Below, in pieces: positions 20,222 to 57,449 of a stretch of DNA of 64,000 nt. Both the position numbers and the translations under genes were made by a program. The notes under the pieces are model-generated. The model was not told the DNA's origin. It was given only the letters and a program-made list of their open reading frames with translations, and made no database searches. Every line of letters starts with the position of its first letter. The stretch's first letter is position 1. Origin of the DNA: Thermoanaerobaculia bacterium (GTDB lineage: Bacteria > Acidobacteriota > Thermoanaerobaculia > UBA5066); NCBI GenBank assembly GCA_038245905.1, contig JBBRRY010000005.1, forward strand, positions 1 to 64,000. The letters are read 5' to 3'.

Positions 20222-21118
20222 TCATCTGCGTGGTGCCCCCGGCAGCGGCCTCGCGCGCCGCGCGAACGCTGCCCGGGAAACGGTCTTTACGATCGTCATC
20301 GTCGTCTCTTCCCGAAGCCCCGCGAGCCCTTCGAAGGCACGCCGGGCGCTTTCCTCATCTCCAAAAAACCCGAACACCGTCGAGCCGCTCCCGGACAGGC
20401 GCGCACTCGTGGCGCCGGAGTCCGACAGGGCCGCCCGGAACCTGCGCAATTCGCCCCGGAGAGACTCCGCCGCCGGTTCCAGATCGTTCCGATCCTGCCC
20501 GCCACCGGAATCAGAACCGGGAAGGTTAGTGGCGGCGGCCGAATCTGTCAACGCGGCGGCGGCGAGCGCCCCGTAAACTACTGCAGTCCGCAGGGAAAAC
20601 CGGGGAAGGACGAGGACGAGCCACTCCTCCGGCCCGTCGTCGAGCGGCTCCAGAATTTCGCCCCGTCCTGTGCCCCGGGCGCGGCCACCGAGAAGGAAGA
20701 ACGGGACGTCAGAGCCGAGGGAGGCCGCAAGTGAGTGTAGATCCTCCTCGGTGAGAGTCAGTTCCCAGAGCGCAGAGAGCCCTCGCAAGGCCGCAGCCGC
20801 ATTCGAGCTGCCGCCGCCCATCCCACCGCCGATGGGGATTCTCTTCGAAAGGTGAACGTCCGCGCCCCGCGTCACGCCGGCCCGCGCGAGTAGAGCCTTC
20901 GCCGCGCGCAACACCAGATTCTCGTCGCCGGAAGGCAGGTCTGCCCCTTCGATCGTCAGCGCGACGCCCTCTTCTTCCCTTTCTAAGAAATCCATCCGAT
21001 CCGAAAGGTCGACGGTCTGGAAGATCGTGTCGATCTCGTGATATCCGTCCGGCCTCTTCCCGAGTAAGCGCAGGGAGCGATTCACCTTCGCGAAGGACTC
21101 GAGGGTAAGCCGCTTCAC
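20222..21118 (-). CDS. ispE: 4-diphosphocytidyl-2-C-methyl-D-erythritol kinase
   Basis: AKVN, DGYHE, IPIGGGMGGGSSNAA, GSDVPFF, LSGSGST. Confidence 0.95.
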   Translation of the reverse strand: MKRLTLESFAKVNRSLRLLGKRPDGYHEIDTIFQTVDLSDRMDFLEREEEGVALTIEGADLPSGDENLVLRAAKALLARAGVTRGADVHLSKRIPIGGGMGGGSSNAAAALRGLSALWELTLTEEDLHSLAASLGSDVPFFLLGGRARGTGRGEILEPLDDGPEEWLVLVLPRFSLRTAVVYGALAAAALTDSAAATNLPGSDSGGGQDRNDLEPAAESLRGELRRFRAALSDSGATSARLSGSGSTVFGFFGDEESARRAFEGLAGLREETTMTIVKTVSRAAFARRARPLPGAPRR

Positions 21119-21795
21119 AGGGGCGGAACCTCTTCGCCTTCGGGCCACGACGAGTAGGCCTCGAGGGTGAGAACGGCTCGCCCGTCGGGGCCGTTCGCTT
21201 CGAGGCGGCGGGGTACGCCCTCTCCCGGCTGGAGTTTCACGACCTCGCCGCCCGGAAAGGACATCTCGGTCACGCGGCCTTCACGGTCCACGGAGGCCGA
21301 GGGCGACAGGGGCTCATCCGGAACGCCGAGAATGCAAGAGATGAGGTCGGAGGAAGACAGTTTTCCGGGAAATGGCCGGGCGCCGTCGTTCGTTCCATTT
21401 CTGAGAAATCCCCCTCTCCCGCTCCCTGCGATCGGCGCCGAAGCGCGCCAGTCGAGCGTCCTCGTCGCGCCATCCCACCAGACCGAAAGGTAGCCGTGGC
21501 CGATCGCGCCGACCTTGGGCGAGACCTCCGCCTTGAAGAGCGCCTTGAAGCGGCGGGTGGGATCCCAGGCGCGGGCGCGGAGCCGCTCATAGGCTTCGGA
21601 AGAAGATGAAGAAGAAGAAGAAAGAGAATTTTCTTTGAAGGGGGAAGAGGGCAAGGGCGTCGATTGCGCGGGTTGTGGAGGCGCCGCGCTCGCCGGCGCG
21701 CGCTGCGGCGCCCCGCTGCCGCATCCACTTTCTAAGCAAAAGAAAACCGAAACAAGAACCGATACTCCCGCCCGAAGCGCGAGGGTCCCCGTCAC
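21115..21795 (-). CDS. Putative lipoprotein at the lolB syntenic position
   Basis: Hydrophobic N-terminus ending SGC; GTGA-coupled between TPR gene and ispE. Confidence 0.6.
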   Translation of the reverse strand: MTGTLALRAGVSVLVSVFFCLESGCGSGAPQRAPASAAPPQPAQSTPLPSSPFKENSLSSSSSSSSEAYERLRARAWDPTRRFKALFKAEVSPKVGAIGHGYLSVWWDGATRTLDWRASAPIAGSGRGGFLRNGTNDGARPFPGKLSSSDLISCILGVPDEPLSPSASVDREGRVTEMSFPGGEVVKLQPGEGVPRRLEANGPDGRAVLTLEAYSSWPEGEEVPPL

Positions 21796-23780: not shown

Positions 23781-23817
23781 GCAGTCTACTCCGCAAGAAA
23801 CGGGCCGCCGGATGGAT

Positions 23818-25555: not shown

Positions 25556-26818
25556 TCAAAAGGGAGTCCTCTGGCCACGCTGAAGAGCGGCGACCGAGGG
25601 AGGCTTCCGAAGAAGGGCGAGGCGGCCCTTTCGGACGCCGGCCTCCGTCGGCCATTCGTGCGAGAGGAAGAGCGGCATCGACTCCGTGTAGCCGTAAGCG
25701 CCCGCATTCTCGAAGGCGAGGAGGTCGCCCCGTTCGGGCAGCGGGAGGCGGGCGGCGGGGTGCAGGACGTCGAGGCTGGTACAGAGGGGACCGGAAAGAA
25801 CCAGGGATTTCTTTGAAGGTGAAGAGGGCTGCGGGCTGCGGCTCCTCTTCGCCTGGATCAGCCTCACTTGGTGCGGCGTCCCGAGGAGGACGGGCCGGAG
25901 GAAATGGTGGACGCCGCCGTCCACGAGGACATAGTCCACGCCGATGCTGCGCTTCGTCCCGAGGACGCGCGTCACGTACGTCCCGGCTTCGGCCACGAGA
26001 AACCGCCCGGGCTCGAATACGAGGCGGACTGAGTCGGGCAGCCCTCTCGCGCGCGCCTCCCGTACTACTGCCCCCATACCCTTTCTAAGAATCTTCAAAT
26101 CCAACGGTCTTTCTGCCGCGGCATAGGGCACTCCGAAGCCGCCTCCGAAATCAACGGAGCGAAGAAGCACCGAGTATCTCTTTGAAAGTGAAAGAGCGAG
26201 GTTCAGGACGTTTCGCGTGTTCTCGACGAGCAGCGCCGCGTCGAGGACGTTGGACGCGTTGAAGACCTGAAAGCCGCAGATGTCGAGATGCCGAAATCTC
26301 TCTTTCACTCGAAGAATCTTCACGGCGCTCGCCAGGTCGAAACCAAACTTTTTCGCTCCCGGGCCGCCGATGATCACGCGCTTCTCGGCGATCCCCCACG
26401 GCGGATTCAAGCGAAGGCCGACAGGCACGGTTCGCCGCGCCCGCCTGGCGATCTCCTCCAGCCTCTCGAGCTCCCACTCCCCTTCCGCGTGAATGATCGA
26501 CACTCGGGCGCGCACGAGCGCTTCGAGATCCGCGTCGGATTTCGCGGGGCCTGTGGAAAGAATCTTCGAAGGTGGACATCCGGCGCGGCGCACCGCGAGC
26601 AGCTCGCCCCGGGATGCGACGTCCGAGGAGAGACCGAATTTGCTTAGAAAGGTAAGAACTCCGAGCGAGGGGTTAGCTTTGACCGCGTAGGCAATCTCGA
26701 AGCGCGGCCCAATCGCCGAGCGGAGCGCGCGTACGCGCGCCTCGATGACATCGAAGTCGTAGAGATACAGCGGCGTCCCGAACCGAACCGCCGCACGACG
26801 CACCACAGAGTCCGACAA
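25556..26818 (-). CDS. lysA: Diaminopimelate decarboxylase
   Basis: [40 protein letters not shown]; last gene of dap operon. Confidence 0.85.
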
Positions 26819-26881
26819 AGGCCTATTACCCTTCTAAGAAATCCCCGGTCGCGCGGCCGAAGGCCGCGTGCAGAAATCTCC

Positions 26882-27649
26882 TCATCTCAGCGCGCTCTCG
26901 AGCACCGTCCTCGCGTCCGTCTTCGCGTCGCGGTACTTCACGATCACGGGCGCCGCGAGGGAAAGGCCGTGACATTTGCCCCACGCGCCGGGCGCGGGGC
27001 GCGCGCCCATGACGACGACTGCGCCCTCCGGCACGACGAGCGGGCGCTCGGGTGTCGAGCGATGCTCCTTCTCGTTCACGAGGTCGAAGAGAACGCTCGA
27101 CGCCGTCAGGATCACGCCCGCCGCGAGCACCGCCCGTCGCTTCACGCAGACGCCCTCGTAGACGCCTGCTCCGCCGCCCACGAAGACCTCGTCCTCGAGG
27201 ACCACCGGCACCGCGCCCACCGGCTCGAGGACGCCGCCCACCTGCGCGGCCGCCGAAAGGTGCACGCGCTTCCCCACCTGCGCGCACGAGCCGACGAGCG
27301 CATGGCTGTCGATCATCGAGCCCTCGTCGACGTACGCTCCGACGTTCACGTAGGCGGGCGGCATCACGACGACACCCTTCGCGAGGAACGCCCCACGTCG
27401 GATGGCCGTCCCGCCGGGAACGACGCGGACCCCCGCGGGCAGGGGCTGGCGCGGCGGAAGCGTGTCGCGGTCGCGGAAGAGGAATGGGCCCGCCTCGCTC
27501 GGCTCCTCGACGCCGAGCCGGAACGCCTCCAGGATGCCCTCCTTGACCGCCGCGTTCGCCACCCAGTCGCCGTTCGCGTCGGGAGAAGCGGCGCGGACCT
27601 CGCCGCGCTCTAGCGCCCCGAGCAGCGCGAAGACGTCTTCGCGCGTCAT
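26882..27649 (-). CDS. dapD: Tetrahydrodipicolinate N-succinyltransferase
   Basis: YVNVGAYVD, VGSCAQVG, GGVLEP, KYRDAKT. Confidence 0.95.
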   Translation of the reverse strand: MTREDVFALLGALERGEVRAASPDANGDWVANAAVKEGILEAFRLGVEEPSEAGPFLFRDRDTLPPRQPLPAGVRVVPGGTAIRRGAFLAKGVVVMPPAYVNVGAYVDEGSMIDSHALVGSCAQVGKRVHLSAAAQVGGVLEPVGAVPVVLEDEVFVGGGAGVYEGVCVKRRAVLAAGVILTASSVLFDLVNEKEHRSTPERPLVVPEGAVVVMGARPAPGAWGKCHGLSLAAPVIVKYRDAKTDARTVLESALR

Positions 27650-28599
27650 GCGGCGACCGCCTCGACGGGCCTTCCAGCCGCATCGAGGAGGCCGGCCGCC
27701 GTCAGAGCTTCCTCCATCGGCTTGTGGTGCGCGGGCGAGAGGGGCACGAGCGGAAGGCGCAGCGTGCCGCCGACGAGGCCCAGCCTCTCGAGAGCCCACT
27801 TCACGGGGATCGGGTTCGACTCCCGAAAATTCGTCTTCATGAGAGGGAAGATTCTCGCCTGAAGCTCGGCGGCACGGATTCTGTTTCCGGCGAGGGCCGC
27901 GGCGATCGCCTCCCCATACAAGGCCGGAGCTTCGTTCGAGACGACGGCAATCACGCCTTCCGCTCCGCAGGCGATCATCGGAACCGCGAGCGAATCTTCG
28001 CCCGAGAGCACCGAGAATCCGTCAGGACGCGCGCGGAGGATCTCGCAGGCCTGGTCGAGGCTGCCCGAGGCTTCCTTCACGGCCACGATGCGCGGGTCCT
28101 TCGCAAGCTCGAGCACGGTGTCGGGCAGCATGTTGAGCCCCGTACGGCCCGGCACGTTGTAAAGGACGATCGGCAGCCCGCCCGCGTCCGCGACGGCCTT
28201 GAAATGCGCGACGAGGCCACGCGGCGTGGGCTTGTTGTAGTAGGGCGTGACGACGAGAAGCGCGTCCGCGCCGGCCCGCCGGCACCGCCCGGCGAGGTCC
28301 CGCGCCTTCTTCGTGTCGTTCGAGCCGCAGCCCGCGATGACATTTACGCGTCGGGACGCCGCGCGCGCTTCCTCGACCGCAATCGCGACGACACGCTCGT
28401 GCTCATCGGGATCGAGCGTGACCGCCTCCCCCGTGGTCCCGCACGGTACGAGGCCGGCGACGCCGCCGGCGATCTGACGCTTGACGAGGCGGCGGAGGCC
28501 CAGTTCGTCGAGCGCGCCATCGTCTTTGAATGGTGTCACGAGAGCCGTGAACACGCCGGAAAAAGAAAGAGAAGAGCTCCTTGAATGTGAAGAGGTCAT
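27646..28599 (-). CDS. dapA: 4-hydroxy-tetrahydrodipicolinate synthase
   Basis: TALVTPF, GTTGE, PYYNKP, YNVPGRTG, KEASG. Confidence 0.97.
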   Translation of the reverse strand: MTSSHSRSSSLSFSGVFTALVTPFKDDGALDELGLRRLVKRQIAGGVAGLVPCGTTGEAVTLDPDEHERVVAIAVEEARAASRRVNVIAGCGSNDTKKARDLAGRCRRAGADALLVVTPYYNKPTPRGLVAHFKAVADAGGLPIVLYNVPGRTGLNMLPDTVLELAKDPRIVAVKEASGSLDQACEILRARPDGFSVLSGEDSLAVPMIACGAEGVIAVVSNEAPALYGEAIAAALAGNRIRAAELQARIFPLMKTNFRESNPIPVKWALERLGLVGGTLRLPLVPLSPAHHKPMEEALTAAGLLDAAGRPVEAVAA

Positions 28600-29354
28600 G
28601 AGGATCGCCCTCCGTTGCCGTGGGACGCGCCGGCTTTCGCGGCCGCCGCGAAGAAGTCGTCAAAGGTCAGGGGGCCCGTCCGCCCGCTCTCGAGCATCCA
28701 CTCCGCGGCACGGACCGCGCCCAGCGCGAAGATCGCGCGCGAACGGGCGCGATGCACGAATTCCAGAGTCTCGCTCTCTCCCTCGAAGAAGACCAGATGC
28801 TCTCCCGGGAGCCCACCCTGACGGAGGGAAGCGATCGGGACGCCCGCGCGCCCCGACTCCTCTTCGAGAACCGCCGCCAGCAGCTTCGCGGTTCCCGAGG
28901 GCGTGTCCTTCTTTTTCGAATGGTGTCTCTCCACGATGCCCGGCTCGAACTCGGGAAACGCTGCGAGGGCCGCGGCAGCCGCGGCGACCGCGCGCTTGAG
29001 CGCGGCGACACCGATGGAGAAATTCGAAGAATGAAGGAAGGGGATTTCTTGCTCCCGAGCGAGCCGCGCCGCCGAAGCAATGTCCCAACCCGTGGTGCCG
29101 GAGAGCACGGGGATTTTATTTGAAAGGAGGAAGGAGACCACCGGCGCTGCGGAATCCGGCGCGGTGAATTCGAAGGCGAGGTCGCAGGTCGAGGCGGTCC
29201 AGTTCCACGGTCTGCCTTTCTCCTCTTCCCCTTCTAAGCAAATCTTTCTTCCCTCTTCTCCTCCTACTCTTCCTGCGACAGAGTGGCCTCTCGCCACGAG
29301 TACCTGCTCGATCGCCTTTCCCATCTTCCCGTATCCGACCAGCAGCGCATTCAT
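28596..29354 (-). CDS. dapB: 4-hydroxy-tetrahydrodipicolinate reductase
   Basis: GYGKMG, GTTGW, NFSIG, ERHHSKKKDTPSGTA. Confidence 0.95.
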   Translation of the reverse strand: MNALLVGYGKMGKAIEQVLVARGHSVAGRVGGEEGRKICLEGEEEKGRPWNWTASTCDLAFEFTAPDSAAPVVSFLLSNKIPVLSGTTGWDIASAARLAREQEIPFLHSSNFSIGVAALKRAVAAAAAALAAFPEFEPGIVERHHSKKKDTPSGTAKLLAAVLEEESGRAGVPIASLRQGGLPGEHLVFFEGESETLEFVHRARSRAIFALGAVRAAEWMLESGRTGPLTFDDFFAAAAKAGASHGNGGRSS

Positions 29355-30715
29355 TCGAAGAACTCCCGATGCAGCCGGCGGAGCGATTCCGGCGCGTCCC
29401 CCTCGGCGACGACGAACGTCAGGTTCGTGTCCGAGGCGCCCTGCGAGATGAGGACGACGTTGACGTCGCCGAGCGCGGCAAAGACGCGGACGGCGATGCC
29501 CGCCGTCGACCTCAGGTTGCGCCCGACGACCGAGACGACCGCGAGATGCTTCAGGAGCGAGACCTCGGCGAATTCCGAGAGGTCGCGGACGATTTCCTCG
29601 AGCGGAGCCCTCTCGTCCACCGTGATCGAAATCGACACTTCGCTCGTCGCGATGACGTCGACCGAGACGCGGTGGCGCTCGAAGACGGAGAACACCCTCG
29701 ACGCGTAGCCGTACGCGAGGAGCATGCGCGGGCTGCCCACGAAGAGCGCCGTGACGCCCTTGCGCATCGCGAGGGCGCGCACGCCGGTCCCCGGAGCGTC
29801 CTTCCGGACGACGGTGCCCGGGGCGTCCGGGTGGAACGTGTTCCGGACGGCCACGGGAATGCCGCGCTGGACAGCCGGCCGGATCGTCGCCGGATGAAGG
29901 ACCTTCGCGCCGAAGAACGCGAGCTCCGCTGCCTCCGGGTAGCTCACTTCGGGGACGGCGCGCGCGGCCGGGACGACACGCGGATCGGCCGTCAGGATTC
30001 CGTCCACGTCCGTCCAGATCTCGATCACGCCGACCGCGAGCCCGGCGTCCTTCAGGGCGCCCCCGAGGACAGCCGCGGAGGTGTCCGAGCCGCCGCGGCC
30101 CAGCGTCGTCGTCGAACCGCCGGGAGCCGCGCCGACGAAGCCGCCCGTCACGACGACGCGTCCCGCTTCAAGCTCCGGAAGAACGCGTGCGGCGACGCGG
30201 CGGGCCGTCTCGGCCTCGTCGGTCCGCGCGGCTCCGTGCGTCGCGTCGGTCGCGAGGATCTCGCGCGGGTCCACCCAGACCGCCTCCGAACCACCCGCGC
30301 TAAGGGCCGCGGCAAGGAGGCGGGAGGAGATCAGCTCGCCCACGGAGAGGAGCGCATCCGAGGTTCGCGGGGAGATTTCTTCGAGTAGTAAGACGCCGGA
30401 CGAGATCTCCTCGACACGCCGCAGCTCGGCTGCGACGGACTCGTTCAACGCTGCGCGCTCGGCCGCGGGCAAGTCCAACCCCCCCACCGCCTCCTCGTGG
30501 CGCTGTGCGAGGATCGCCCTCGCGCGCCCCGCCGCCTCCCGATCCCTTCCACTCAAAGAAATCTTCAGACCGACCAACAAGTCCGTGACTCCACCCATCG
30601 CGGACGCGACGACGACGCACGGGTCTCCTCCGCGCGCGGCCACGAGGCGCGCGACGTCCCGGATCCGCTCGGCCGATCCGAGCGAGGTCCCGCCGAACTT
30701 GAGGACGTCGGTCAA
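29351..30715 (-). CDS. lysC: Aspartokinase
   Basis: LKFGGTS, TTLGRGGSD, WTDVDG, ACT domains. Confidence 0.95.
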   Translation of the reverse strand: MTDVLKFGGTSLGSAERIRDVARLVAARGGDPCVVVASAMGGVTDLLVGLKISLSGRDREAAGRARAILAQRHEEAVGGLDLPAAERAALNESVAAELRRVEEISSGVLLLEEISPRTSDALLSVGELISSRLLAAALSAGGSEAVWVDPREILATDATHGAARTDEAETARRVAARVLPELEAGRVVVTGGFVGAAPGGSTTTLGRGGSDTSAAVLGGALKDAGLAVGVIEIWTDVDGILTADPRVVPAARAVPEVSYPEAAELAFFGAKVLHPATIRPAVQRGIPVAVRNTFHPDAPGTVVRKDAPGTGVRALAMRKGVTALFVGSPRMLLAYGYASRVFSVFERHRVSVDVIATSEVSISITVDERAPLEEIVRDLSEFAEVSLLKHLAVVSVVGRNLRSTAGIAVRVFAALGDVNVVLISQGASDTNLTFVVAEGDAPESLRRLHREFFE

Positions 30716-37685: not shown

Positions 37686-40600
37686 TCAGCGCCTCACCCA
37701 AACGGGCGACGACCACGCCTGCTCGCCGTCGGCCTGGGTGACGCGCACGTACCAGCTCGTCTCCCCCGACGCGTCCGGGGAATCCTGCACGGCGAAGGAA
37801 ACGCGCCGCGTATCCGCCGCGGGGAGCCACGTGACCCCCTGCGGGTCTTTCGGGTCGTAGAGGACGTACGCGCCATCCGGTGCGCCCGGCGTCTGGCGCA
37901 TCCGGACCGCCGCAAATGTGTCCCGGAGGTTCCGGACGATCTCGACGCGGTCGATCGCGGCGGTGCCCTCCACGCGGACCGCGAACGTGAGCGGCCCGTT
38001 CGATTTCAGAATCGAGCCCATCGGAGCGCCGTCCGCCGTGAACTCGAGGACGATCCGCGCGCCCGTCGTCGCGTAGTTCCGGCGGTTCCGGATCGCCTCG
38101 AAGATCGAGGCGCGGTCGAGCGTCTCGGCGAGGACGGCCGTGAGGCCGCCCTCCCCCGGCGAGAGATGATGCGTGTCGCTCGCCCCCATGGCGCCAACGT
38201 GGCGGCCGAGGCGAAGGGCGTCCTGGTACTGGTGGCCCGGCACCTGCCGCCGGCCCTCGCGCGGGTTGCCGTAGAACTCGTACCGCCCGTGCCATGAGGC
38301 GATCTCGAAGTTCGGCTCGAGGGCCTCGTCGTGCGGCGCGGCCGGGTTCCACCTGCCCCAGAGGGCGTGCCCCGTGTGGTGCGGTGACATCACGGCGTCG
38401 TGCTCTTTCGCGTGGCGGTAGAGCTTCTCGATCGTGTCGCTGTCCGGATCCGACGAGCGCAGCGTGCGGTCCGGCCCGTCGTCCTTGTAGAGAAGGACGC
38501 GGTGGCCGAACGCGGACCCCGCCGTCCACTCCCATCCCGAGAGGCTGACGAAGCGGCCGGGCGCGTCGAAGGCGGCCGCCGTCGCGCGGAGCTCGGCAAA
38601 CTCCGACGGCTGGAGGAGTCCCATCTCGGAGTGGTCGCTCACGACCGCGAAGTCGAGACCGAGGCGATCGCGTGAGAGCCAGAGAAGCTGATCGGGGAGA
38701 CCGGTCTTCGCGTCGGAAAGCACGCTATGGCTGTGCGGGTCGCCGAAGTAGACGTGCCAGCGGCCGCCTCCCGCCGTCGCCGTCCGCGGCTCCGGCCCCG
38801 CGGTGCGCGGCTCGAGGTCGGGCAGCGCGTCGAAGTGGTCGGGCGGCGCCGCCGCGATCTCCCCCGGCGTCCAGCCGTCTCGGGAGGCCGTGAGCCGCCC
38901 GAGGAAGACGACGTTGCGGCTCGAGTGCGTGTTGTAGGCGTCGACGTCGCCGCCCTCCACCTTTTCGCCCGGCTTCGGCAGCGCTTGCCCCTCCCACGCA
39001 AGCGCGAGGGACCCGTCGGGCGCAAGAGCCGCCGCGGGAAACTCGTCGCGGCCGGGCGAGAACGTCGTGAGGTGCAGCTCCGGCGACCAGCGTTGTCCGT
39101 CGTGGACGCGCGCCCAGAGGTCGAAATTGTGCGCGCCCGTCGCGTCCGTCCTCCAGACGATCCACGCGCGCCCCGCACCGTCGAGAAAGACGGATGGATA
39201 GTTCTGCGTCTGCTTCCAGTGCCAGTAGGGCTCCTCCGTGTCACGGACCGACTTGTCCACCATGCCGAAGCTGACCTGGCCCGGCAAGGCGGAGGGCGCG
39301 ACGCCGACCGGCGCCGCGAACACGCCGTCCTTGTACGTGCGGACGAAGGCGTCCCCGGAGTGCCGGTCGGCGCGGAAGAGGTCCGCCGAGTGGCCGCGCA
39401 TCGAGTTCCACGCAATCCAGAGCGTCCCGTCCTTCGCGCAGGCGAGGGATGGCGAGTCGTCGATCGCGGCGTCCGACGTCACCGGGACGGGCGCCTCGAG
39501 ACGGGGCGCCGCGCCTCCAGAAAGGCGCGCCCGCGCGACAAAGACGTCAAGGTTGCCGGTCCGCGTCGAGTCCCACGCGAGCCACATGCCGCCGTCCGGC
39601 GGAGCCGCGAGGGCAGGCCGCCGGTCAGTCCCGTCGCTCGCGATCCGCATGGGTGCGCTCCAGCCCGAGTCGCGCGCCGCGACGAGCGAGATCCCGAAGC
39701 CACCCCTCTTGAGGAACTCCCACGCGACCCAAAGTCGGCCTGTCGCATCCAGAGCCACTGAGGGATGCAAAGCGTCTTCCCCCTTCAAAGAAATCCTGTT
39801 CTCCGGCCCCCACCCGTCGCCGCCCCGCGCGCGCGAATAGACCGCCCAGCCGCCCTTTCTCTTGCCGTGCCAGAAGACCCGGATGCGTTTCTTCCCGTCG
39901 AGGACGAGCTTCGCGCCGGACTCCAGGCCCTCGCCGGCGTCGAGACGCTCCTCCTCCGCCCACGCGCTCCCTTTCCGACGGCGGACGACGACGCGGTCGT
40001 TTCCGCCGTCCGTAGACGTGTACGCGCACCAGAGGTCGCCCGCGGCGTCGAACGCGATGGACGGGTACTTGTCGAAACGCCCGGGCTTCGAGAGGGTCGC
40101 GACGCCGTCGAGAGCCGAGGGCGCCGTGGGTATTGGGACGAAGCGCCCGCCCGCTGGTGGCTCGACTCGTCCCGCTTCTCGCAGGAATTCCGCCACGACG
40201 TCCGAGAGGAGGACGCCACCGTCCGCGACCCCTGCCGCTTTCAGGAACGTCTGGTAGAGGTCGCCCCCCTGCGCGATGAAGCTGTTCGTCGCGACGCGGT
40301 AGGTTCGCGCGTCGTCGAGCGGCCGGCCGCCGATCCCCACCGAAAGAAGGCGCGCTCCCGGCGGATGCCCGAGGTCGTACGTGCCGGCCAGGCCCGAAAC
40401 CTGGATGAGACCCCGCTCGAGCGTAAGGCCCTGCTCGAGAAACTCGCGGATCTGCTTTCCCGTCAGCTCGAGGGTCACGAGGGAGTTCACGAACGGGAGC
40501 GCGTCGATCACGTTCGCGCGCGTGACGGGACCGGCGGGAAGGTCGGCCCGGAGCCCGCCCGCGTTCTCGAACGCGACCTCGGCACCCGATTTCAGGCGCA

Positions 40601-41681
40601 TGACGTCGGCAACGAAGTCCCCCAGCGAAGACTCGGCCCGGTAGTCGCGGACGAGGCGCTTCGTGAGCGTCCCCGCGGGCGCGCCGGCGGCTTTCCGGGC
40701 CTCTTCGCGATAGGGCGCGAAAAGTGCGACGACCGCCGGGTCGGGCGGCAGCTCGTCGGACCGCACCTCGAGGAGCTCGCCGCGGTAATCCGCGACGCGA
40801 CCGTTCCGGAGCTTGAGCTTCAGATACCCGAGGCGCGTCCCGTAGCCGTACGTCTGGACGATGAGCGTCCCCGTCTTCGGGTGGACGTAGGGTTTCTCGA
40901 TCCCGCGGTGAGCGTGGCCACCGACGAACACGTCGATCCCCGGGACGGCGCCCGCGAGCGCGATGTCCTCGGCGAAGTCACGCTGGACCTCGGGGCGCGC
41001 CTCGGCATCCGTCTGCATCGGGCCCGTCTTTCCCTGGTGGGCGAGCACGACGACGAGGTCGACCCTCGGGCGCAGCTCCTTCACGGCCGCGCGGACTTCC
41101 TCGACGGGGTCCGTGAAGTCCAGCGACGTGATGCCGGACGGGAGCGCGACGCTGCGCGCGTCCATTCCGATGATTCCGATGACGCCGACTCTCAGGCCGT
41201 CCCGCTCGAGAATCACCCAGGGCGGTGCGTAGCGCTTCCCCGTCGCCTTCTCGTAGATGTTCGCGCCGAGCACCGGGAACGAGGCTCCCCTCATGAGCGG
41301 CGTGAAGACGGCCGAGCCGTAGTCGAACTCGTGGTTCCCGATCGCCATCGCGTCGACCTTCAAGACGTCCCATAGGCGCATGAGCGCCTCGCCCTTCGTC
41401 AGGAACGAAAACGTCCCCGTGAAGAGGTCGCCCGAGTCGAACAGGAACGTCGTCTTCTCGCGTGCGCGGATCCGGTTGATCAGCGTCGAGAGCTGCGCGG
41501 CGCCGCCGAGCTGAGGCGAGCCCGGACGCCAGTAGGCCGGGATCGGATCGATCGCGGAGTGAAAGTCGTTCGTATAGAGGATCGTGACCTCACGCTCGGC
41601 GGCGGCAGGAGGTGCGGCAAGGGAGGAGGAGGCCAGACCCGCGGCGACGAGGAGGCATGAAGCGGCGCGCAGCGATTTCAT
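37686..41681 (-). CDS. Secreted fusion: 5'-nucleotidase + beta-propeller-like repeats + PHP-type (DUF3604-like) metallohydrolase
   Basis: TNDFHS, DSGD, GNHEFD, GGHAH, NAGGLR; repeats P.[IL]A.D..G..W.AW; GDPHSHS, VSDH, PHH, ASDTH. Confidence 0.85.
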   Translation of the reverse strand: MKSLRAASCLLVAAGLASSSLAAPPAAAEREVTILYTNDFHSAIDPIPAYWRPGSPQLGGAAQLSTLINRIRAREKTTFLFDSGDLFTGTFSFLTKGEALMRLWDVLKVDAMAIGNHEFDYGSAVFTPLMRGASFPVLGANIYEKATGKRYAPPWVILERDGLRVGVIGIIGMDARSVALPSGITSLDFTDPVEEVRAAVKELRPRVDLVVVLAHQGKTGPMQTDAEARPEVQRDFAEDIALAGAVPGIDVFVGGHAHRGIEKPYVHPKTGTLIVQTYGYGTRLGYLKLKLRNGRVADYRGELLEVRSDELPPDPAVVALFAPYREEARKAAGAPAGTLTKRLVRDYRAESSLGDFVADVMRLKSGAEVAFENAGGLRADLPAGPVTRANVIDALPFVNSLVTLELTGKQIREFLEQGLTLERGLIQVSGLAGTYDLGHPPGARLLSVGIGGRPLDDARTYRVATNSFIAQGGDLYQTFLKAAGVADGGVLLSDVVAEFLREAGRVEPPAGGRFVPIPTAPSALDGVATLSKPGRFDKYPSIAFDAAGDLWCAYTSTDGGNDRVVVRRRKGSAWAEEERLDAGEGLESGAKLVLDGKKRIRVFWHGKRKGGWAVYSRARGGDGWGPENRISLKGEDALHPSVALDATGRLWVAWEFLKRGGFGISLVAARDSGWSAPMRIASDGTDRRPALAAPPDGGMWLAWDSTRTGNLDVFVARARLSGGAAPRLEAPVPVTSDAAIDDSPSLACAKDGTLWIAWNSMRGHSADLFRADRHSGDAFVRTYKDGVFAAPVGVAPSALPGQVSFGMVDKSVRDTEEPYWHWKQTQNYPSVFLDGAGRAWIVWRTDATGAHNFDLWARVHDGQRWSPELHLTTFSPGRDEFPAAALAPDGSLALAWEGQALPKPGEKVEGGDVDAYNTHSSRNVVFLGRLTASRDGWTPGEIAAAPPDHFDALPDLEPRTAGPEPRTATAGGGRWHVYFGDPHSHSVLSDAKTGLPDQLLWLSRDRLGLDFAVVSDHSEMGLLQPSEFAELRATAAAFDAPGRFVSLSGWEWTAGSAFGHRVLLYKDDGPDRTLRSSDPDSDTIEKLYRHAKEHDAVMSPHHTGHALWGRWNPAAPHDEALEPNFEIASWHGRYEFYGNPREGRRQVPGHQYQDALRLGRHVGAMGASDTHHLSPGEGGLTAVLAETLDRASIFEAIRNRRNYATTGARIVLEFTADGAPMGSILKSNGPLTFAVRVEGTAAIDRVEIVRNLRDTFAAVRMRQTPGAPDGAYVLYDPKDPQGVTWLPAADTRRVSFAVQDSPDASGETSWYVRVTQADGEQAWSSPVWVRR

Positions 41682-43697: not shown

Positions 43698-44612
43698 GTG
43701 AGCGCGGACGCCCGCCCCCGCTACGGAATCACGCCCCGGCCGGATTGGCTGAAGGTGCACGTGCACGACAACGAGCTGTCGCGCGGCATCGCGGCACTCG
43801 TGGTGGACAAGCACCTCAATACGGTCTGCCAGGAAGCCCGCTGCCCAAATCTCTTCGAGTGCTGGGGAGTCGAAAAGACCGCCACCTTCATGCTCATGGG
43901 TGACGTCTGCACGCGGCACTGCGGCTTCTGCGCGGTCACACAGGGGGCCGGAAAGCCGCTCGATCCCGAGGAGCCGCGGCACGTCGCCGAGGCCGTCAAG
44001 ACGCTCGGAGTCCGCCACGCGGTCGTGACCTCCGTCAACCGCGACGAGCTGCCCGACGGCGGTGCCGCACACTTCGCCGCCACGATCAGAGAGATTCGGA
44101 GCCTCAGCCCCGGCGTCACAGTCGAGGTCCTCATTCCGGACTTCCTCGGGAGCGAGGCCGCGCTCAGGACGGTCCTCGACGAGGCGCCCGAAGTCTTGAA
44201 CCACAACGTCGAGACCGTCGAGCGCCTCTATCGCCGGGTGCGCCCGGACGCGATCTACGCGCGGTCGCTCGAGCTGCTCGCGCGAGCGGCGGGGAGGAGA
44301 GACGAAGAGAAAGAGAAGAAGAAGATTTTTTTGAAGGTGAAGAGCGGCTTGATGGTCGGCCTCGGCGAAACTCGTGAGGAGCTCTCTCGGGCGCTCAGCG
44401 ACCTGCGCGCGGCGGGTGTCGACGTCGTCACCGTGGGCCAGTACCTGCAGCCGCACGCACGGCGGCTCCCGATCGAGCGCTACGTCACCCCGCAGGAGTT
44501 CGAGGAGATCCAGAGAGAGGGAACGGAAATGGGATTCTCGAGGGTGGAATCAGGGCCGCTCGTGCGGTCTAGCTATCACGCGAGAAGGGCGCTTCCCCCT
44601 CCTACCTTCTAA
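43698..44612 (+). CDS. lipA: Lipoyl synthase
   Basis: CQEARCPNLFEC, CTRHCGFC, VRSSYHA. Confidence 0.97.
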   Translation: MSADARPRYGITPRPDWLKVHVHDNELSRGIAALVVDKHLNTVCQEARCPNLFECWGVEKTATFMLMGDVCTRHCGFCAVTQGAGKPLDPEEPRHVAEAVKTLGVRHAVVTSVNRDELPDGGAAHFAATIREIRSLSPGVTVEVLIPDFLGSEAALRTVLDEAPEVLNHNVETVERLYRRVRPDAIYARSLELLARAAGRRDEEKEKKKIFLKVKSGLMVGLGETREELSRALSDLRAAGVDVVTVGQYLQPHARRLPIERYVTPQEFEEIQREGTEMGFSRVESGPLVRSSYHARRALPPPTF

Positions 44613-44624
44613 GAAATCCCTCTT

Positions 44625-52325: not shown

Positions 52326-52326
52326 C

Positions 52327-53073: not shown

Positions 53074-54080
53074 TGCGGCACCGCGGTGCCTTCGGGCGGC
53101 GTCGACGAGTCCCGGTCGATGGCGCCGCGCAGCGTTTCGACTTCGACGGCCGCGTCCCGCGAGACGAGGCGCACGAAGACGTCCTCGAGCGAAGCCTCGC
53201 GAGGCGTGAGCTCGAGAAGAGTCCATCCGCGGAGGACCGACTCCTTGAAGACCGACTCACGAAGGTCCGTTCCCGGCACGCCGTCCAGCATCACACGCGT
53301 CTCGCCTCCGGCGCCGATGCGCGACGCTCCCGCGACACCGGGGAGCTGGCGGAGGATGCTGTCGGCCTCGGGAACCTCGCCCTTCAGCGCGACCGTAACG
53401 CTGGGAGTCTGCGACATCTGGTGGCGAAGGGTCTCGGGAGTCCCGGACGCGACGATCCGTCCCTTGTCGATGATGAGGATGCGGTCGCAAACGAGCTCGA
53501 CCTCGGGAAGAATGTGAGTGGAGAGAAGAATCGTGTGGTCCTGCCGGAGGTCGCGGATGAGCGCGCGGACCTTCACGATCTGCCGGGGGTCGAGCCCGAC
53601 GGTGGGCTCGTCGAGGACGAGGACTTTCGGCTTGTGGACGAGGGCCCCGGCGAGGCCGACGCGCTGCCGATATCCTTTCGAGAGGTTCCCGATGGGCTTC
53701 TCGGCGACGTCGTCGACGAAGCACTTTCCGAGCGCTTCGTCGACGCGCGCCTTGACGTCGCGACCCGCCACACCGCAGAGCTCGGCCCGGAAAGCCACGT
53801 ACTCCCGGACCCGCATTTCCGGGTAGAGGGCGAGCGTCTCGGGCAGGTACCCGAGAGAGCGCTTGGCCAGGATCGGGTTCTCGAGGACGTCCACGTCCGC
53901 CAGCGTGACCCTGCCAGCCGTCGGCCTCAGGAAGCCCGTGATCATGCGCATCGTCGTGGTCTTTCCGGCCCCGTTCGGGCCGAGAAATCCCAGAATCTCG
54001 CCGCTTTCGACACGGAAGCTCACGTCCGTGACGGCGGGCGTTCCGTAAAACGACTTCGAGAGTCCGTGTGCTTCGAGCAT
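53070..54080 (-). CDS. ABC ATP-binding protein (GldA-like)
   Basis: GPNGAGKTT, LSKGYRQR, LDEPT. Confidence 0.93.
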   Translation of the reverse strand: MLEAHGLSKSFYGTPAVTDVSFRVESGEILGFLGPNGAGKTTTMRMITGFLRPTAGRVTLADVDVLENPILAKRSLGYLPETLALYPEMRVREYVAFRAELCGVAGRDVKARVDEALGKCFVDDVAEKPIGNLSKGYRQRVGLAGALVHKPKVLVLDEPTVGLDPRQIVKVRALIRDLRQDHTILLSTHILPEVELVCDRILIIDKGRIVASGTPETLRHQMSQTPSVTVALKGEVPEADSILRQLPGVAGASRIGAGGETRVMLDGVPGTDLRESVFKESVLRGWTLLELTPREASLEDVFVRLVSRDAAVEVETLRGAIDRDSSTPPEGTAVPQ

Positions 54081-54166
54081 CTCTTTCGGTGACCTCCGCG
54101 CGGGGCCTCGACCGGACACCGCGTCGCCGCCGGCGGGCCGCAGAAGCCGTGGGAATATAGCAGGCC

Positions 54167-55081
54167 TTGAGGGAGAGTGAGAACGTAACTGCGCCCCTCA
54201 GGCGGTCCCTCGCCGTCCTCGCCGCGCTCACCTCCATCGTCATCTGGGCGGTGAACTACCCCGCCATGAAGGTCGCCTTTCGCGAGCTCTCCCCGCTGGC
54301 GTTCACCGGCTGGCGATTCCTTCTCGCCACGACGTTCCTCTTCGCGGAGGCTCTCGTCCGGCGGGAGCCCCTCGTCCCGCCGCCCGGAGCGCGCGGCCTC
54401 GCCCTTCTGCTCGCTCTGTCCGGTGTCGGCCTTTACCAATGGCTCTACGCGCTCGGACTCGCCTCCACGAGCGGTTTTTCCGCGGCCCTCCTGAACTCCG
54501 TCTCTCCGCTCATCGCGATGCTGCTCGTCGTCCTCCTCGGCTGGGAGCACATGTCGAAACTCGCGGGCGCGGGCTCGCTTCTGGCATGGGGCGGTGTTGC
54601 CCTCTTCGTCACCTCGGCCCGCGGCGCGGACTTCGGGAGCACCGCGGGAAACCTCATGTGCCTCGGAGCCGCCACGTCCTGGGCCGTCTACAACGTGGTG
54701 TCGGTCCGCGCCGGCCGGCTGCTCTCGCCTCGCGCCGCCCAGCTCGCGACCTTCGGCGGCGGGACCGTCCTGATTCTAGCGTACGCCCTGCCCGACATGC
54801 TCCGGCAGGACTATGCGCGCGTGAGCCCGTTCACATGGGCGCTCGTCGTTTTTTCGGCGATCCTTCCCCTCGCCGTCGCCTTCCGTCTCTGGCTCGAAGC
54901 CGTGCGTTCGCTCGGCGTCGCGCAGGCGACGAGCTTCGGCTTCCTCGTGCCCGTGCTCGCCGGCATCGCGTCGGCGATATTCACGGGCGAGCGCTTCGAC
55001 GCGCGGAAGGTCTTGTCGGCGGCCGTCGTTCTCTCCGGCCTCGCGCTCATCCGGATCGCGCGAACGAAGGGCACGACCTGA
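54167..55081 (+). CDS. DMT/EamA family transporter
   Basis: About ten TM helices; IWAVN, GWRF, GWE and GE motifs. Confidence 0.88.
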   Translation: MRESENVTAPLRRSLAVLAALTSIVIWAVNYPAMKVAFRELSPLAFTGWRFLLATTFLFAEALVRREPLVPPPGARGLALLLALSGVGLYQWLYALGLASTSGFSAALLNSVSPLIAMLLVVLLGWEHMSKLAGAGSLLAWGGVALFVTSARGADFGSTAGNLMCLGAATSWAVYNVVSVRAGRLLSPRAAQLATFGGGTVLILAYALPDMLRQDYARVSPFTWALVVFSAILPLAVAFRLWLEAVRSLGVAQATSFGFLVPVLAGIASAIFTGERFDARKVLSAAVVLSGLALIRIARTKGTT

Positions 55082-55140
55082 CCTTTCCTGGAACGTCCTG
55101 TCTCCCCCGCGCTAGGATCGCGGGAATTCACGGAGGTTCG

Positions 55141-56469
55141 ATGTACCGTTCCGTCGCCCGCGTCGTCGATCTCACCGATCCCGCGCTTAACCAGCTCCGG
55201 GGAGTCTCTCTCGCCGAGGCACGAGCGTGCGTCGCTTCGGGCGACGCTGCGGCCGCCTCCGCTCTCGACGGGTCGTACGCCCTCGTAGGCGTGGACGGCA
55301 TCACCGTGCGGCTCGCGCGTTCGCTGGATCGCCCGCTCCGCTACTTCCTCGCGAAGGAGGCGGACGGCCCGATTCTCGTCGTCGCGGACCGGATCGACGC
55401 CGTGCACGACTGGCTGAAAGAGCACGGGCACGGTGATCAGTTCCACCCGAGCTATACGCGCATGGTTCCGGCGCACCACGTCGTCACGCTGCGGCTCGTG
55501 GGCTGCCCGGATCCGGCGCCAACTTATGTGCGGACGTTCACACCGGCACGAAATGTCCTTCCGCAGGACCTCGACGAGATCGGGCGCCTCTACGTCGGGG
55601 CGCTCGCCGACGAGATCGCGAAATGGGTCGAGTCGATTCCCGCCCACGAGCCGATCGGCGTCACCTTTTCCGGCGGCATCGACAGCGGCGCGGTCTTTCT
55701 CGTCACGCACCACGTCCTTCACCACCTCGGCCTCGGTCCCGCGCGCCTCAAGGCCTTCACGCTCTCGGCCGGGAACGGCCCCGACCTCGAGCAGGCCCGC
55801 TGCTTCCTCGACGCGCTGGACCTCGGTTTCTTCCTCGAGCCCGTCGCCGTCGACCCGGCGTCCCTGAATCCCCGGGAGGCTGTCCGTCTCATCGAGGACT
55901 ACAAGCCTCGCGACGTGGAGTCCGCCACGATGGCGCTCGCGCTCTTGCGCGGAATACGGGAGCGTTATCCGGAGTGGCACTTCGTCCTCGACGGCGACGG
56001 CGGCGACGAGAACTTGAAGGACTACCCCATCGAGGAGAATCCGGAGCTCACGATCCGGAGCGTCGTGAACAACCTGATGCTCTACCAGGAGGGTTGGGGC
56101 GTCGGCTCGCTCAAGCACTCCGAAACGTACACGGGCGGCCAGAGCCGTTCCTCGACGCGCACGTACGCGCCCCTACAGGCATGCGGTTTTGCGGGCTTCA
56201 GCCCGTTCACGAGGCCGCGCGTGATCGCGGTGGCCGAAGGAATTCCGTTCGCCGCATTGACGGAAGGGTCCGTCGAGAAGCTCTACGCGCTGAAGGGCGA
56301 GATCGTCTCGCGGGGTGTCCGCGCGATCACCGGCTTCACGATGCCCGTCTTCCCGAAGCGTCGCTTCCAGCATGGCGCCGGAGGGGACGAGGTGTTCGCG
56401 CGCCTCTTCGGCGACACAGAAGCCCAGTACCGCGCCGCGTTCCTCTCGCGATACATCGGCGCCGCGTGA
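55141..56469 (+). CDS. Asparagine-synthase-like ATP-dependent ligase with degenerate glutaminase domain
   Basis: FSGGIDSG PP-loop, LDGDGGDE, SPF; no N-terminal Cys; GGAGG RBS. Confidence 0.8.
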   Translation: MYRSVARVVDLTDPALNQLRGVSLAEARACVASGDAAAASALDGSYALVGVDGITVRLARSLDRPLRYFLAKEADGPILVVADRIDAVHDWLKEHGHGDQFHPSYTRMVPAHHVVTLRLVGCPDPAPTYVRTFTPARNVLPQDLDEIGRLYVGALADEIAKWVESIPAHEPIGVTFSGGIDSGAVFLVTHHVLHHLGLGPARLKAFTLSAGNGPDLEQARCFLDALDLGFFLEPVAVDPASLNPREAVRLIEDYKPRDVESATMALALLRGIRERYPEWHFVLDGDGGDENLKDYPIEENPELTIRSVVNNLMLYQEGWGVGSLKHSETYTGGQSRSSTRTYAPLQACGFAGFSPFTRPRVIAVAEGIPFAALTEGSVEKLYALKGEIVSRGVRAITGFTMPVFPKRRFQHGAGGDEVFARLFGDTEAQYRAAFLSRYIGAA

Positions 56470-57449
56470 TCGACCTCGAAACCGCGGGCCGCGAGGCTCG
56501 GGACGCGTTCGTCCTCGGCCTCCGGCCGCCGCGAAACGCCGTGGACCCATTCCGTCCGTCCGGATTCTTCGTGGAAGAGGAGCCGCGGCGGGGCGGCGGC
56601 ACGGAGCAGGTCGCGACGGTCCTCCTCACGAATCGCGAGTGCCCGTGGCGCTGCGTCATGTGCGACCTCTGGAAAAACACGCTCGAAGGACCGACGTCGA
56701 AAGGCGCGATCCCGGCGCAGATGCGATTCGCGCTCGAGAGGCTGCCCCCCGCGGCCGTCCTGAAGCTCTACAACGCGGGCAGCTTCTTCGACCGCGCGTC
56801 GATCCCGAAAGACGACCACGAGGAGATCGCATCGCTCGCGCGCGGATTCGAGCGCGTGGTCGTGGAATGCCATCCCGCTCTCGTCGGCGATTCGACGCTG
56901 AAGTTTCGCGATCTCCTCGGCGGCCCGGCGCTCGAGGTCGCGCTCGGGCTCGAGACCGCGCACGCGGAGGCGCTCGAGAAGCTCAACAAGGGGATGACGC
57001 TCGAGGACTTCGAGAACGCGAGCCGCTTTCTCGTGGCTCACGGGGTTCGCGTTCGCAGTTTCATCCTCGTAGGAGTTCCTTTTCTTCGGAGGGAAGAATG
57101 GGCGGAGGCGACCCGCGCGAGCATCGACCTTTCCTTCCGGGCGGGCGCCGAAGCCGTCTCGCTCATTCCCACGCGTCTCGGGAACGGCGCGATGGAGGAG
57201 CTGCAGAGAGAAGGACAGTTCGTCACTCCCACGCTTCGGGATCTGGAGACGGCGCTGGAAGATTTCTTTGAAGGGGAAGACGGACGGGGTGGCGCGCCGA
57301 GTTTCGTTCTCGCGGATCTCTGGGACGCCGACGCTCTTCCGGCGCCTCCCTGTTGCTCGGCCGCCCGCATCGAGCGCCTCCGCTCCATGAACCTCCTTCA
57401 AAGAAATCTTCCTCCCTCTCCCTGCTCGTCGGGCCGCCATCCTTCGTGA
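56466..57449 (+). CDS. Radical SAM protein, RaSEA (TIGR01210)-like
   Basis: CPWRCVMC, KLYNAGSFFD, LEVALGLETA, LNKG; GTGA coupling. Confidence 0.8.
   Translation: MIDLETAGREARDAFVLGLRPPRNAVDPFRPSGFFVEEEPRRGGGTEQVATVLLTNRECPWRCVMCDLWKNTLEGPTSKGAIPAQMRFALERLPPAAVLKLYNAGSFFDRASIPKDDHEEIASLARGFERVVVECHPALVGDSTLKFRDLLGGPALEVALGLETAHAEALEKLNKGMTLEDFENASRFLVAHGVRVRSFILVGVPFLRREEWAEATRASIDLSFRAGAEAVSLIPTRLGNGAMEELQREGQFVTPTLRDLETALEDFFEGEDGRGGAPSFVLADLWDADALPAPPCCSAARIERLRSMNLLQRNLPPSPCSSGRHPS

Follow-up and report, generated by a model that had tools for sequence, protein, structure and literature searches.

A stretch of 64,000 nt from a genome of the Acidobacteriota class Thermoanaerobaculia (hereafter the window; positions 1-64000 of contig C5 of genome G000, which comprises 3.80 Mb in 113 contigs with a GC content of 67.8% and a completeness of 96.4%) carries copies of a dispersed, asymmetric DNA motif that typically comes as two converging arms, the GGTGAAGAGGG end of each directed at the other. 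A first-pass annotation of the window had reported the motif as a dispersed word and proposed an undescribed uptake sequence or nucleoid-protein site. That the signal acts at the DNA level and is undescribed held up, and it proved clade-specific with a dialect, like known uptake sequences, but neither of these models predicts convergent pairs, and the pair architecture, which had not been seen, is the main finding beyond that annotation. Among neighbouring sites in G000 that are no more than 600 nt apart, 82 were convergent, 4 divergent and 21 tandem. The spacing between core starts ranges from 46 nt to several hundred (46-350 nt in the usual unit), with most pairs at ~80-170 nt, and arms repeated in tandem are seen at 24-42 nt. 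When 361 sites were classified by pairing, 162 were strongly paired, 74 weakly paired and 125 unpaired. The same polarity extends to weak arms: of the 197 sites that lack a strong partner, 99 have an opposite-strand match of positive score on their inner side, vs. 13 on the outer side.

The motif is far more frequent than expected under every null model that we used, namely dinucleotide shuffles of the window (n = 100), two genomes simulated with a third-order Markov model, and 15 synonymous-codon shuffles within called genes. In the window, the exact 12-mer TTCWAAGAAATC occurs seven times, compared to a mean of 0.02 in the dinucleotide shuffles (0 of 100 reached seven), and 19 matches with at most two mismatches were found vs. 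2.53 expected. Genome-wide, the exact word occurs 94 times in G000, and a variant with C in place of W another 41 times. A position weight matrix (PWM) of 26 columns, built from these 94 sites and applied to the genome they come from, yielded 362 sites at a threshold of at least 14 bits, compared to 7 in the two simulated genomes together (~3.5 each). Genes were called with our own crude codon-score caller, which assigned 92.8% of G000 to coding sequence; the called genes contain 66 exact copies vs. a mean of 1.0 (largest 4) after synonymous-codon shuffling, a 66-fold excess, and 257 PWM hits vs. a mean of 27. Codon choice in these genes is therefore bent to build the motif. The excess over codon-preserving shuffles, the use of all frames and both orientations, and the retention of rare codons at orthologous sites support selection, or drive, on the DNA rather than on the protein, in line with the earlier suggestion. 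Chance and artefact are rejected by the shuffles, the simulated genomes, the contigs of sequencing run X1 and the independently assembled genomes in which the motif recurs.

On its purine-rich strand, the consensus reads as an AG-rich tract followed by GATTTCTTWGAA and GG(T/G)(G/A)AAGAGGG, ~23-26 bp in all and asymmetric. The AG tract varies in length, is longest in spacers and fades outward without a sharp edge, whereas the inner side of the consensus ends at about +23. The extension CTCTTC(A/C)CC before the core, which the first-pass annotation had described in the window, is found genome-wide. A graded consensus of this kind, without a sharp element end, is what a binding-energy matrix would be expected to produce. 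A minority variant with one more T (T4, GATTTTCTT) accounts for 55 of the 362 PWM sites, compared to 198 with three T (T3). The two variants combine at random within pairs (25 T3/T3, 17 T3/T4 and 2 T4/T4 pairs vs. 25.1, 16.3 and 2.7 expected), and a heterotypic T3/T4 pairing rule is thus rejected.

The arms of a pair were compared with each other and with arms of other pairs. Arms of the same pair are no more complementary to each other than arms across pairs (z from −0.07 to 0.9), and many pairs do not match at W (24 A/A and 11 T/T of 79). In 15 HisA orthologues we found no compensatory change: 88.3% of the cells pair vs. 87.6% after shuffling (108 of 500 shuffles were as high), and 2 pairs changed on both sides vs. 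1.8 after shuffling. The arms thus appear, from these comparisons, to be recognised independently of each other. Arms of different loci have exact runs of at most 30 nt in common, and the interiors of pairs are unrelated. Four paralogous Ser/Thr-kinase-like genes of G000 (C11:59929, C24:11446, C24:27681 and C25:29576) carry a pair at the same place in the N-terminal lobe with a spacing of 96 nt; because the position is shared among the paralogues, this pair was inherited through gene duplication.

With respect to genes, 259 of the 362 PWM sites lie inside called genes, 93 in spacers and 10 on gene edges; given that 92.8% of the genome is called coding, the 93 spacer sites correspond to an approximately four-fold enrichment of spacers per base. 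The purine strand is the coding strand at 122 in-gene sites and the non-coding strand at 137, with all three frames used, and partnerless sites are similarly balanced (purine strand coding at 38 vs. pyrimidine strand coding at 44). These counts, together with the mixed orientation to flanking genes, reject a promoter, a ribosome-binding site or an RNA-level signal for single sites. A resemblance of the purine arm to a Shine-Dalgarno-like sequence was considered and dropped given the absence of strand bias; G000 lacks a 16S 3' end for comparison. Motif-bearing spacers number 0.13 per kb among divergent, 0.38 among tandem and 0.30 among convergent spacers, that is, sites avoid promoter-only spacers. 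The 251 loci in 3.8 Mb, about one per 15 kb, are distributed in a near-Poisson manner (variance/mean 1.33 in 20-kb bins). On the 3.88-Mb contig of a relative, which is without dnaA, 82 unpaired sites showed no strand polarity (33 plus and 49 minus, runs z = −0.33), although a mild bias is possible. With the strands mixed without runs on that contig (dnaA lies on another contig), a polar signal like Chi or KOPS (FtsK orienting polar sequences) is rejected.

Inside genes, pairs overlay conserved protein domains. The HisA pair falls at residues 97-135, within a His_biosynth match that covers residues 8-245 on profile positions 2-226; the RsmH/MraW pair falls at residues 202-247, within a Pfam match of residues 52-365 on profile positions 3-306; and in an AMP-binding_C match (420-507 on profile positions 1-76) the left arm is inside the domain. 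The excess length of these three matches is 10-13 residues per whole domain, compared to the 40-70 residues that a pair spans, and these pairs therefore appear to have been built in situ, not inserted. In MnmE, a pair at residues 322-372 runs over the end of the GTPase-domain match (229-338) and stays inside the MnmE_helical match (135-476, a 211-position profile); it has no bearing on the domain-length question. Orthologue alignments of the GHMP-kinase and LysA-like genes of the window likewise show point substitutions and not indels, in keeping with an origin of coding copies in situ; some intergenic copies are present or absent as indels.

We further compared 27 sites to the orthologous positions in up to five genomes of the host genus, here g1 (80 site-by-genome comparisons). 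Most positions keep the motif with 0-3 mismatches; in 5 of the 80, an indel is seen at the core. The core is 0.78 identical and the inner extension 0.725, vs. 0.60-0.63 for the immediate flanks; sequence further away reaches 0.73-0.83, a range that BLAST anchoring inflates. All 17 aligned g1 genomes have the HisA pair, and decayed arms in the dialect of the sister genus, g10, are found at the same position in all 6 aligned genomes of g10, which belongs to the same family of Thermoanaerobaculia. Since the motif is present in both genera, including at the orthologous HisA site, the system predates the split between g1 and g10. The CT-rich tract outside the HisA right arm varies from a few to ~80 nt among g1 genomes. 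Three further observations were made at this gene: the whole unit (left arm, HisA-coding interior and right arm) is duplicated in tandem in G012 (L191), an in-frame CT-rich expansion of ~80 nt follows the right arm in G008 (L190), and a second, different arm pair stands at the same place in G007. The G000 HisA protein (C17:36429-37214) used as a query had a match in 18/18 g1 genomes, 8/8 g10 genomes and 0/12 genomes of two other families of the order; on this single-query result, histidine biosynthesis may be missing from those families or carried out by other enzymes.

The motif is confined to a narrow clade, and its carriers are uncultured Thermoanaerobaculia (Acidobacteriota) known as metagenome-assembled genomes (MAGs) from soil and sediment. 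The 12-mer occurs in 35-162 copies in 18/18 g1 genomes, compared to 0-1 copies in 12 genomes from the two other families. As a control, the reversed word was absent from all genomes except G021, which has 1 copy. Among 200 genomes of the class (a tally that includes the unpublished G024 and G193, which enter such tallies only), g1 alone is rich in the motif (10/10), and the remaining genomes have at most 10 copies. In the family, the distribution of the 14-mer TTCTTWGAAGGTRA is as follows: 26/26 g1 genomes (32-176 copies), 8/8 g10 genomes (1-21 copies) and 0/26 genomes of eight other genera. In 400 kb of one g10 genome, the most over-represented 11-mers spell GATCTTCTTAGAAGGTGAA, one letter from the four-T variant of g1, and 3 of the 11 listed g10 sites are in convergent pairs. 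The extended motif was found in only 1 stretch of a viral contig collection, and a phage origin is accordingly rejected.

In the window, the arms are arranged as follows (strand as scored with the PWM; positions in the window).

20970..20992 (−): single arm, exact core at 20981-20992 plus an 11-nt inner extension, 36.3 bits (best partner −3.6 bits); inside the GHMP-kinase (IspE-like) gene 20222-21118(−), Pfam GHMP_kinases_N/C, where it is read M-D-F-L-E-R-E-E-E-G.
21388..21410 (−): degenerate single arm, core at 21399-21410 with 1 mismatch, 18.4 bits.
21628..21650 (+): left arm of the T4 variant ATTTTCTTTGAA, 23.6 bits, with a possible weak partner at 21912 (8.0 bits).
25806..25828 (+): left arm, exact core, 40.3 bits; inside the LysA-like decarboxylase gene 25556-26806(−), Pfam Orn_Arg_deC_N / Orn_DAP_Arg_deC, with P-S-S-P-S-K-K-S on the coding strand.
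26072..26094 (−): weak right arm facing 25806 at a distance of 277 nt (inner side, opposite strand), 11.3 bits.
26175..26197 (+): degenerate single arm in the LysA-like gene, 24.9 bits; one mismatch in the orthologous site of G017.
26638..26660 (+): very weak, possible left partner of 26832, 6.1 bits.
26821..26843 (−): arm in the 75-nt spacer from gene 26882-27649(−) to the LysA-like gene, exact core, 36.3 bits.
28574..28596 (+): degenerate single arm, 16.1 bits.
29113..29135 (+): weak left arm, pairing with 29232, 12.0 bits.
29221..29243 (−): right arm in gene 28596-29354(−), 16.5 bits.
30374..30396 (+): left arm, 15.1 bits, in gene 29351-30715(−); converges with the arm at 30552 (178 nt).
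30541..30563 (−): right arm, partner of 30374, 24.9 bits.
39773..39795 (−): single arm without partner, exact core, 30.7 bits; inside the 1331-aa gene 37686-41681(−), read R-I-S-L-K-G-E-D.
44324..44346 (+): left arm after an AG tract, 1 mismatch, 33.9 bits; in the radical SAM (LipA-like) gene 43698-44612(+), read E-E-K-E-K-K-K-I-F-L-K-V-K-S.
44596..44618 (−): right arm of the 44324 pair (283 nt), exact core, 35.3 bits; its TAA is the stop codon of gene 43698-44612, whose translation ends in PPPTF and stop.
57261..57283 (+): left arm of a pair (136 nt), exact core, 40.1 bits; near the C-terminus of the radical SAM gene 56466-57449(+), read E-D-F-F-E-G-E-D.
57386..57408 (−): right arm, partner of 57261, exact core, 29.5 bits, 38 nt before the start of the next gene; read M-N-L-L-Q-R-N-L with the rare codons CAA AGA AAT CTT.

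The window thus holds three strong pairs (30374/30552, 44324/44607 and 57261/57397), two weak pairs (25806/26083 and 29113/29232), perhaps two more (26638/26832 and 21628/21912), and single arms at 20981, 21399, 26175, 28574 and 39784. All seven exact copies listed in the first-pass annotation were found where it had placed them, on the strands of the word as it had spelled it: 20981(+), 25806(−), 26832(+), 39784(+), 44607(+), 57261(−) and 57397(+). Of its 11 near copies, six recur at no more than 2 mismatches (21399, 21628, 26176, which is our 26175, 30374, 30552 and 44324), 29232 is recovered with the PWM, and 26083, 26637 (our 26638) and 29112 (our 29113) reappear as weak partner arms, but 21730 was not recovered. 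The peptides that it had read from the motif (DFLE in the GHMP kinase, PSKKS in the LysA-like protein, RISLK in the product of 37686-41681, and DFFE and LQRN in the radical SAM protein) are present in the translations, as are the stop codon of gene 43698-44612 inside the motif and the TTA codon, in GAT TTC TTA GAA; its estimate of ~68% GC agrees with the genome value. An Rfam search of the window matched only two tRNAs and no family for the motif, and when the literature was searched for four 12-mers, the matches listed were all in unrelated contexts (eukaryotic, viral or primer), in line with the claim that the signal is undescribed. Literature on Thermoanaerobaculia in connection with repeats, uptake or competence gave nothing relevant among the matches listed.

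Orthologous sites of individual window arms follow the genome-wide pattern. For the arm at 20970..20992, 1 of 5 relatives has a core with 1 mismatch and 4 of 5 have 2-6 mismatches, with no indel in the four aligned relatives. For the arm at 21388..21410, G009 has an exact copy, and G013, G001 and G004 differ from it at 1-3 positions of the core; the arm at 21628..21650 is exact in G001 and lost by an indel in G013; and for 25806..25828 the 23-mer is identical in G001, with 2-3 mismatches and no indel in three other relatives. The core at 57261..57283 has 0-1 mismatch in 3 of 5 relatives, a 15-nt insert splits the copy of G004, and unrelated sequence stands in G013. Its partner at 57386..57408 is exact in 4 of 5 relatives and has one mismatch in G013; it is better conserved than its flanks, and the rare codons are kept. 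The spacer arm at 26821..26843 is part of a 50-64-nt segment in G000 and G001 that is missing in G009 and G017, where the genes abut. Beside this arm, at 26845-26885, a GC-rich hairpin of 28 nt (8-bp stem, TTCG loop) stands in G000 between a partial motif start and the full core, as if inserted with a GATTTCT duplication, and G001 has an AG tract at that position instead. We examined sequencing runs as Logan contigs, which drop rare variants (four runs, among them X1, possibly the source run, X2 and X4). The X1 contigs span both arm pairs without difference, with the pair 44324/44607 unchanged, and the motif recurs in dozens of independently assembled MAGs; it is not an assembly artefact. Relatives from runs X2 and X4 have an extra AGA in the AG tract at 44313.

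Two other regions of the window stand apart. The first 9323 nt have a lower GC content (0.61-0.65) and close with a gene for a tyrosine recombinase, 8026-9234(+), that immediately precedes a tRNA at 9250-9323; this stretch is probably an integrated element. No motif copy is found there, as the first-pass annotation had noted for positions 1-9300 (there is none below 20981), and 9 kb without a copy is expected at one locus per 15 kb. At 53520-54020 the summed contig depth is ~10 times that elsewhere in all four runs (~320-580 vs. 5-80), with many loose contig ends at 53587-53984, a pattern suggestive of a repeat or of sequence common to many other organisms.

Clearly, something reads this motif on DNA. 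The graded asymmetric consensus, the independent arms, the strand symmetry, the in situ origin, the orthologous persistence and the dialect point to a trans-acting reader, two copies of which would meet across the pair. Tentatively, and with less than even confidence, we favour the reading that the motif is a clade-specific, asymmetric site of ~23-26 bp read on duplex DNA by a dedicated, putative sequence-specific protein. Each arm would be bound on its own by such a protein, and two readers on head-to-head arms 46-350 bp apart would contact each other across the bracketed segment. The most likely use would be an architectural one, with each of the ~250 loci (one per 15 kb) forming a small clamp or loop. 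Sites would arise and persist in place by point substitution, under selection or biased transmission, and would be tolerated wherever the protein or a 3' spacer permits.

Several points weigh against this reading. About a third of the sites (125/361) are without any partner. The spacings show no clear 10.5-bp phasing: by hand count, 64 spacings fall into five bins as 17, 8, 17, 11 and 11 (chi-square ~5, 4 degrees of freedom), which argues against rigid bridging through a short loop because such bridging would predict phasing. Nor does simple binding predict the hypervariable outer AG/CT tracts, or that arms and whole units are now and then duplicated in tandem. The PWM scores the same genome that supplied its 94 training sites. 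Codon scores inside in-gene pairs are below those of average coding windows (median 0.13 vs. 0.38), and some of these interiors may therefore be fast-evolving linkers or mis-called genes. Finally, no reader protein was found among the candidates checked. No gene is flanked by copies on both sides more often than by chance (4 vs. 4.6 expected), and a 197-aa protein without Pfam family, with three tandem arms upstream, was rejected: it is present in 21/26 g1 genomes, in 0/8 g10 genomes, and in motif-less genera.

The main rival to a dedicated site-binding protein is a signal for DNA uptake and transformation, a reading that we consider unlikely. A competence receptor would prefer motif-bearing DNA, and biased uptake with recombination would fix substitutions that improve the motif throughout a shared gene pool, as with the DNA uptake sequences (DUS) of Neisseria and the uptake signal sequences (USS) of Pasteurellaceae. 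DUS and USS occur at a density of about one per kb, and their known inverted pairs are tight terminator hairpins. With ~250 loci per 3.8 Mb, the motif is roughly ten times sparser; its specified part is longer (23-26 nt) and carries a homopurine flank, and its main form is a convergent pair 46-350 nt apart, not a single word or a tight terminator hairpin. Such strict convergent pairing is without a role in known uptake. All else fits: the motif is a short word strongly over-represented genome-wide, written into coding sequence by substitution and not by insertion, in all frames and both orientations; it is enriched in spacers downstream of genes, depleted in divergent spacers, spread evenly without polarity, kept at orthologous positions, restricted to a clade with a one-letter dialect in the sister genus, and nearly absent from viral contigs. 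The sources on uptake sequences cited here describe the same over-representation on both strands, the downstream enrichment, the orthologous conservation, the clade-specific dialects and intragenic orientation patterns (PMC7371117, PMC2346458, PMC2397512). G000 encodes ComEC and two secretins, which says little because both are common in control genomes too (ComEC in 10/14, secretin in 6/14), and competence is not established in this uncultured clade. An uptake signal thus explains everything except the low density and the pair rule.

Less probable again is a hairpin-forming repeat, akin to repetitive extragenic palindromic (REP) sequences, bacterial interspersed mosaic elements (BIMEs) or the hairpins of miniature inverted-repeat transposable elements (MITEs), whose arms would pair in RNA or single-stranded DNA and whose stem would, for example, stabilise or process mRNA or be acted on by gyrase or a nuclease. 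The motif occurs mainly as inverted doublets, there are hundreds of copies with vertical inheritance and clade specificity, and transcribed spacers downstream of genes are preferred. These features are shared with the inverted REP doublets known as REPINs, as described in the sources consulted (PMC3116915, PMC3337134). Folded as a single strand, the pair 57261/57397 forms a 20-bp arm-arm stem of −79.2 kcal/mol (z = −3.99). Against a hairpin stand the lack of both pair-specific complementarity and compensatory change across the 15 orthologues, the mismatched W position, and the arm order, since a stem forms equally well from divergent arms, yet divergent neighbours number 4 vs. 82 convergent. 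About a third of the sites are partnerless and without strand bias relative to transcription, and ~70% of sites lie inside called genes, Pfam domains included (259/362 in genes). The arms are not palindromic, their spacing is highly variable, and no Rfam family matches. REP-associated tyrosine transposases (RAYTs; Y1_Tnp, PF01797) had no match in G000, the one genome searched (96.4% complete). Repeats read by Ssn nucleases, which according to the source cited exist in many phyla, also come as hundreds of clade-specific copies with a dedicated protein reader and variants that follow the protein (PMC11893778). The SRM repeats of that NTS/SRM system are, as described there, compact hairpins (a palindrome with an 8-nt loop) that flank the ssn gene (PMC11893778), whereas the motif has no compact hairpin and flanks no gene beyond chance.

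Least probable, indeed very unlikely, are sites of a DNA-rearranging enzyme, either old, fixed terminal inverted repeats of miniature transposons or crossover sites of a clade-specific invertase (invertons). The absolute inward/outward polarity of the arms, as at transposon ends, the tandem arm repeats, the intergenic copies present or absent as 50-64-nt indels and the tandem duplication of a whole unit in G012 speak for it. Specific tests speak against it. Copies share no exact run above 30 nt and have unrelated interiors, unlike MITEs and Rickettsia palindromic elements (RPEs), whose copies share internal parent-element sequence, and the motif has no sharp element end. RPEs resemble the motif as repeats with inverted ends inside protein-coding genes that are kept across species, and they insert in frame. 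They are, however, inserted units with a conserved interior that adds residues, whereas the arms here overlay existing, continuous Pfam domains and bracket functional, host-specific sequence. Arm pairs 0.6-5 kb apart enclose housekeeping genes only and no transposase, and a parent transposon between distant arms is thereby rejected; unlike for MITEs, no autonomous element with the same terminal repeats was found between these arms.

Invertons are similar in that inverted repeats bracket segments of 50-350 bp, some of them intragenic, and many loci share one consensus; intragenic inversions are described in bacteria in the source cited (PMC10028968). Here, in contrast, no inversion was seen between genomes or in run contigs, no invertase tracks the motif, and many bracketed segments encode conserved parts of housekeeping enzymes. 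Among 163 loci of relatives (1.2 Mb) compared to G000, 0 nested inverted matches were found, and no strand-change joints were listed at arms in the run contigs, from which rare variants are dropped. Joints reported as skips in the contig comparison were not taken as real, with short sides (21-35 letters, two of 87) and 90% likeness. No serine recombinase of the resolvase family was found in G000. Its tyrosine recombinases number four, one of them a full-length integron integrase at C58:7811-8788 (L231:812-1789; TIGR02249, 462.6 bits vs. a cut-off of 265), which lies ~1 kb from a motif cluster and is divergent from two genes separated by a motif pair. IntI is widespread in the family; it exceeds the cut-off in motif-less genera and does not in the motif-rich genomes G014, G242 and G006; its presence does not track the motif, and the integrase is rejected as the reader. 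Integron attC sites are rejected for the same lack of coupling, and motif sites are dispersed. Only two rve-domain (DDE) transposases were found in G000, the family searched for, namely an IS21-type istA/istB pair (C6:96325-98384) and an IS3/IS481-like protein (C19:68498-70240), neither linked to the motif. The hairpin and the rearrangement readings are thus each contradicted by specific tests and are kept as improbable alternatives.

Two further kinds of known site can be set beside the motif. HIP1 of cyanobacteria is, in the accounts cited, likewise a hyper-abundant word written into genes, under selection and conserved within clades (PMC5861425, PMC4390886). It differs as an 8-bp palindrome tied to methyltransferases at about one per gene, compared to a motif that is long, asymmetric, paired and far sparser. 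The parS, matS, Noc and SlmA sites are palindromic and cluster regionally, whereas the motif is asymmetric and almost evenly spread, and the first-pass suggestion of a matS-, SlmA- or Noc-like site is not upheld. The motif therefore departs from each known system in at least one defining feature: from DUS/USS in density; from HIP1 in palindromy; from REPINs in extragenic location, covariation and RAYT; from MITEs and RPEs in conserved interior and, for coding copies, apparently in insertion; from invertons in cognate invertase and in that no inversion was seen among the loci and contigs compared; and from attC in linkage to IntI. It belongs to the broad kind of clade-specific, over-represented DNA signals. 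That it represents a new class of chromosomal signal, in which head-to-head asymmetric sites bracketing 50-350 bp are built in situ in enzyme domains and co-evolve with a putative clade-specific reader, is possible, if somewhat doubtful. The reader of such a class could be a clamp or loop protein acting as a topological or cohesion barrier, or a pair-dependent receptor for uptake or recombination in Acidobacteriota.

The strict head-to-head pair rule fits no described family, and the signal is strong enough to overwrite codons, and even residues, in housekeeping enzymes of an environmentally common class. In practice, the motif and its dialect mark g1 and g10 in metagenomes and can flag native vs. 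foreign DNA in MAGs. DUS/USS, Chi, KOPS, REP and HIP1 are over-represented words that each exposed chromosome biology; the reader of this motif, if found, would reveal either self-recognising natural transformation among Acidobacteriota or a DNA-protein system of a new kind, architectural or rearranging.

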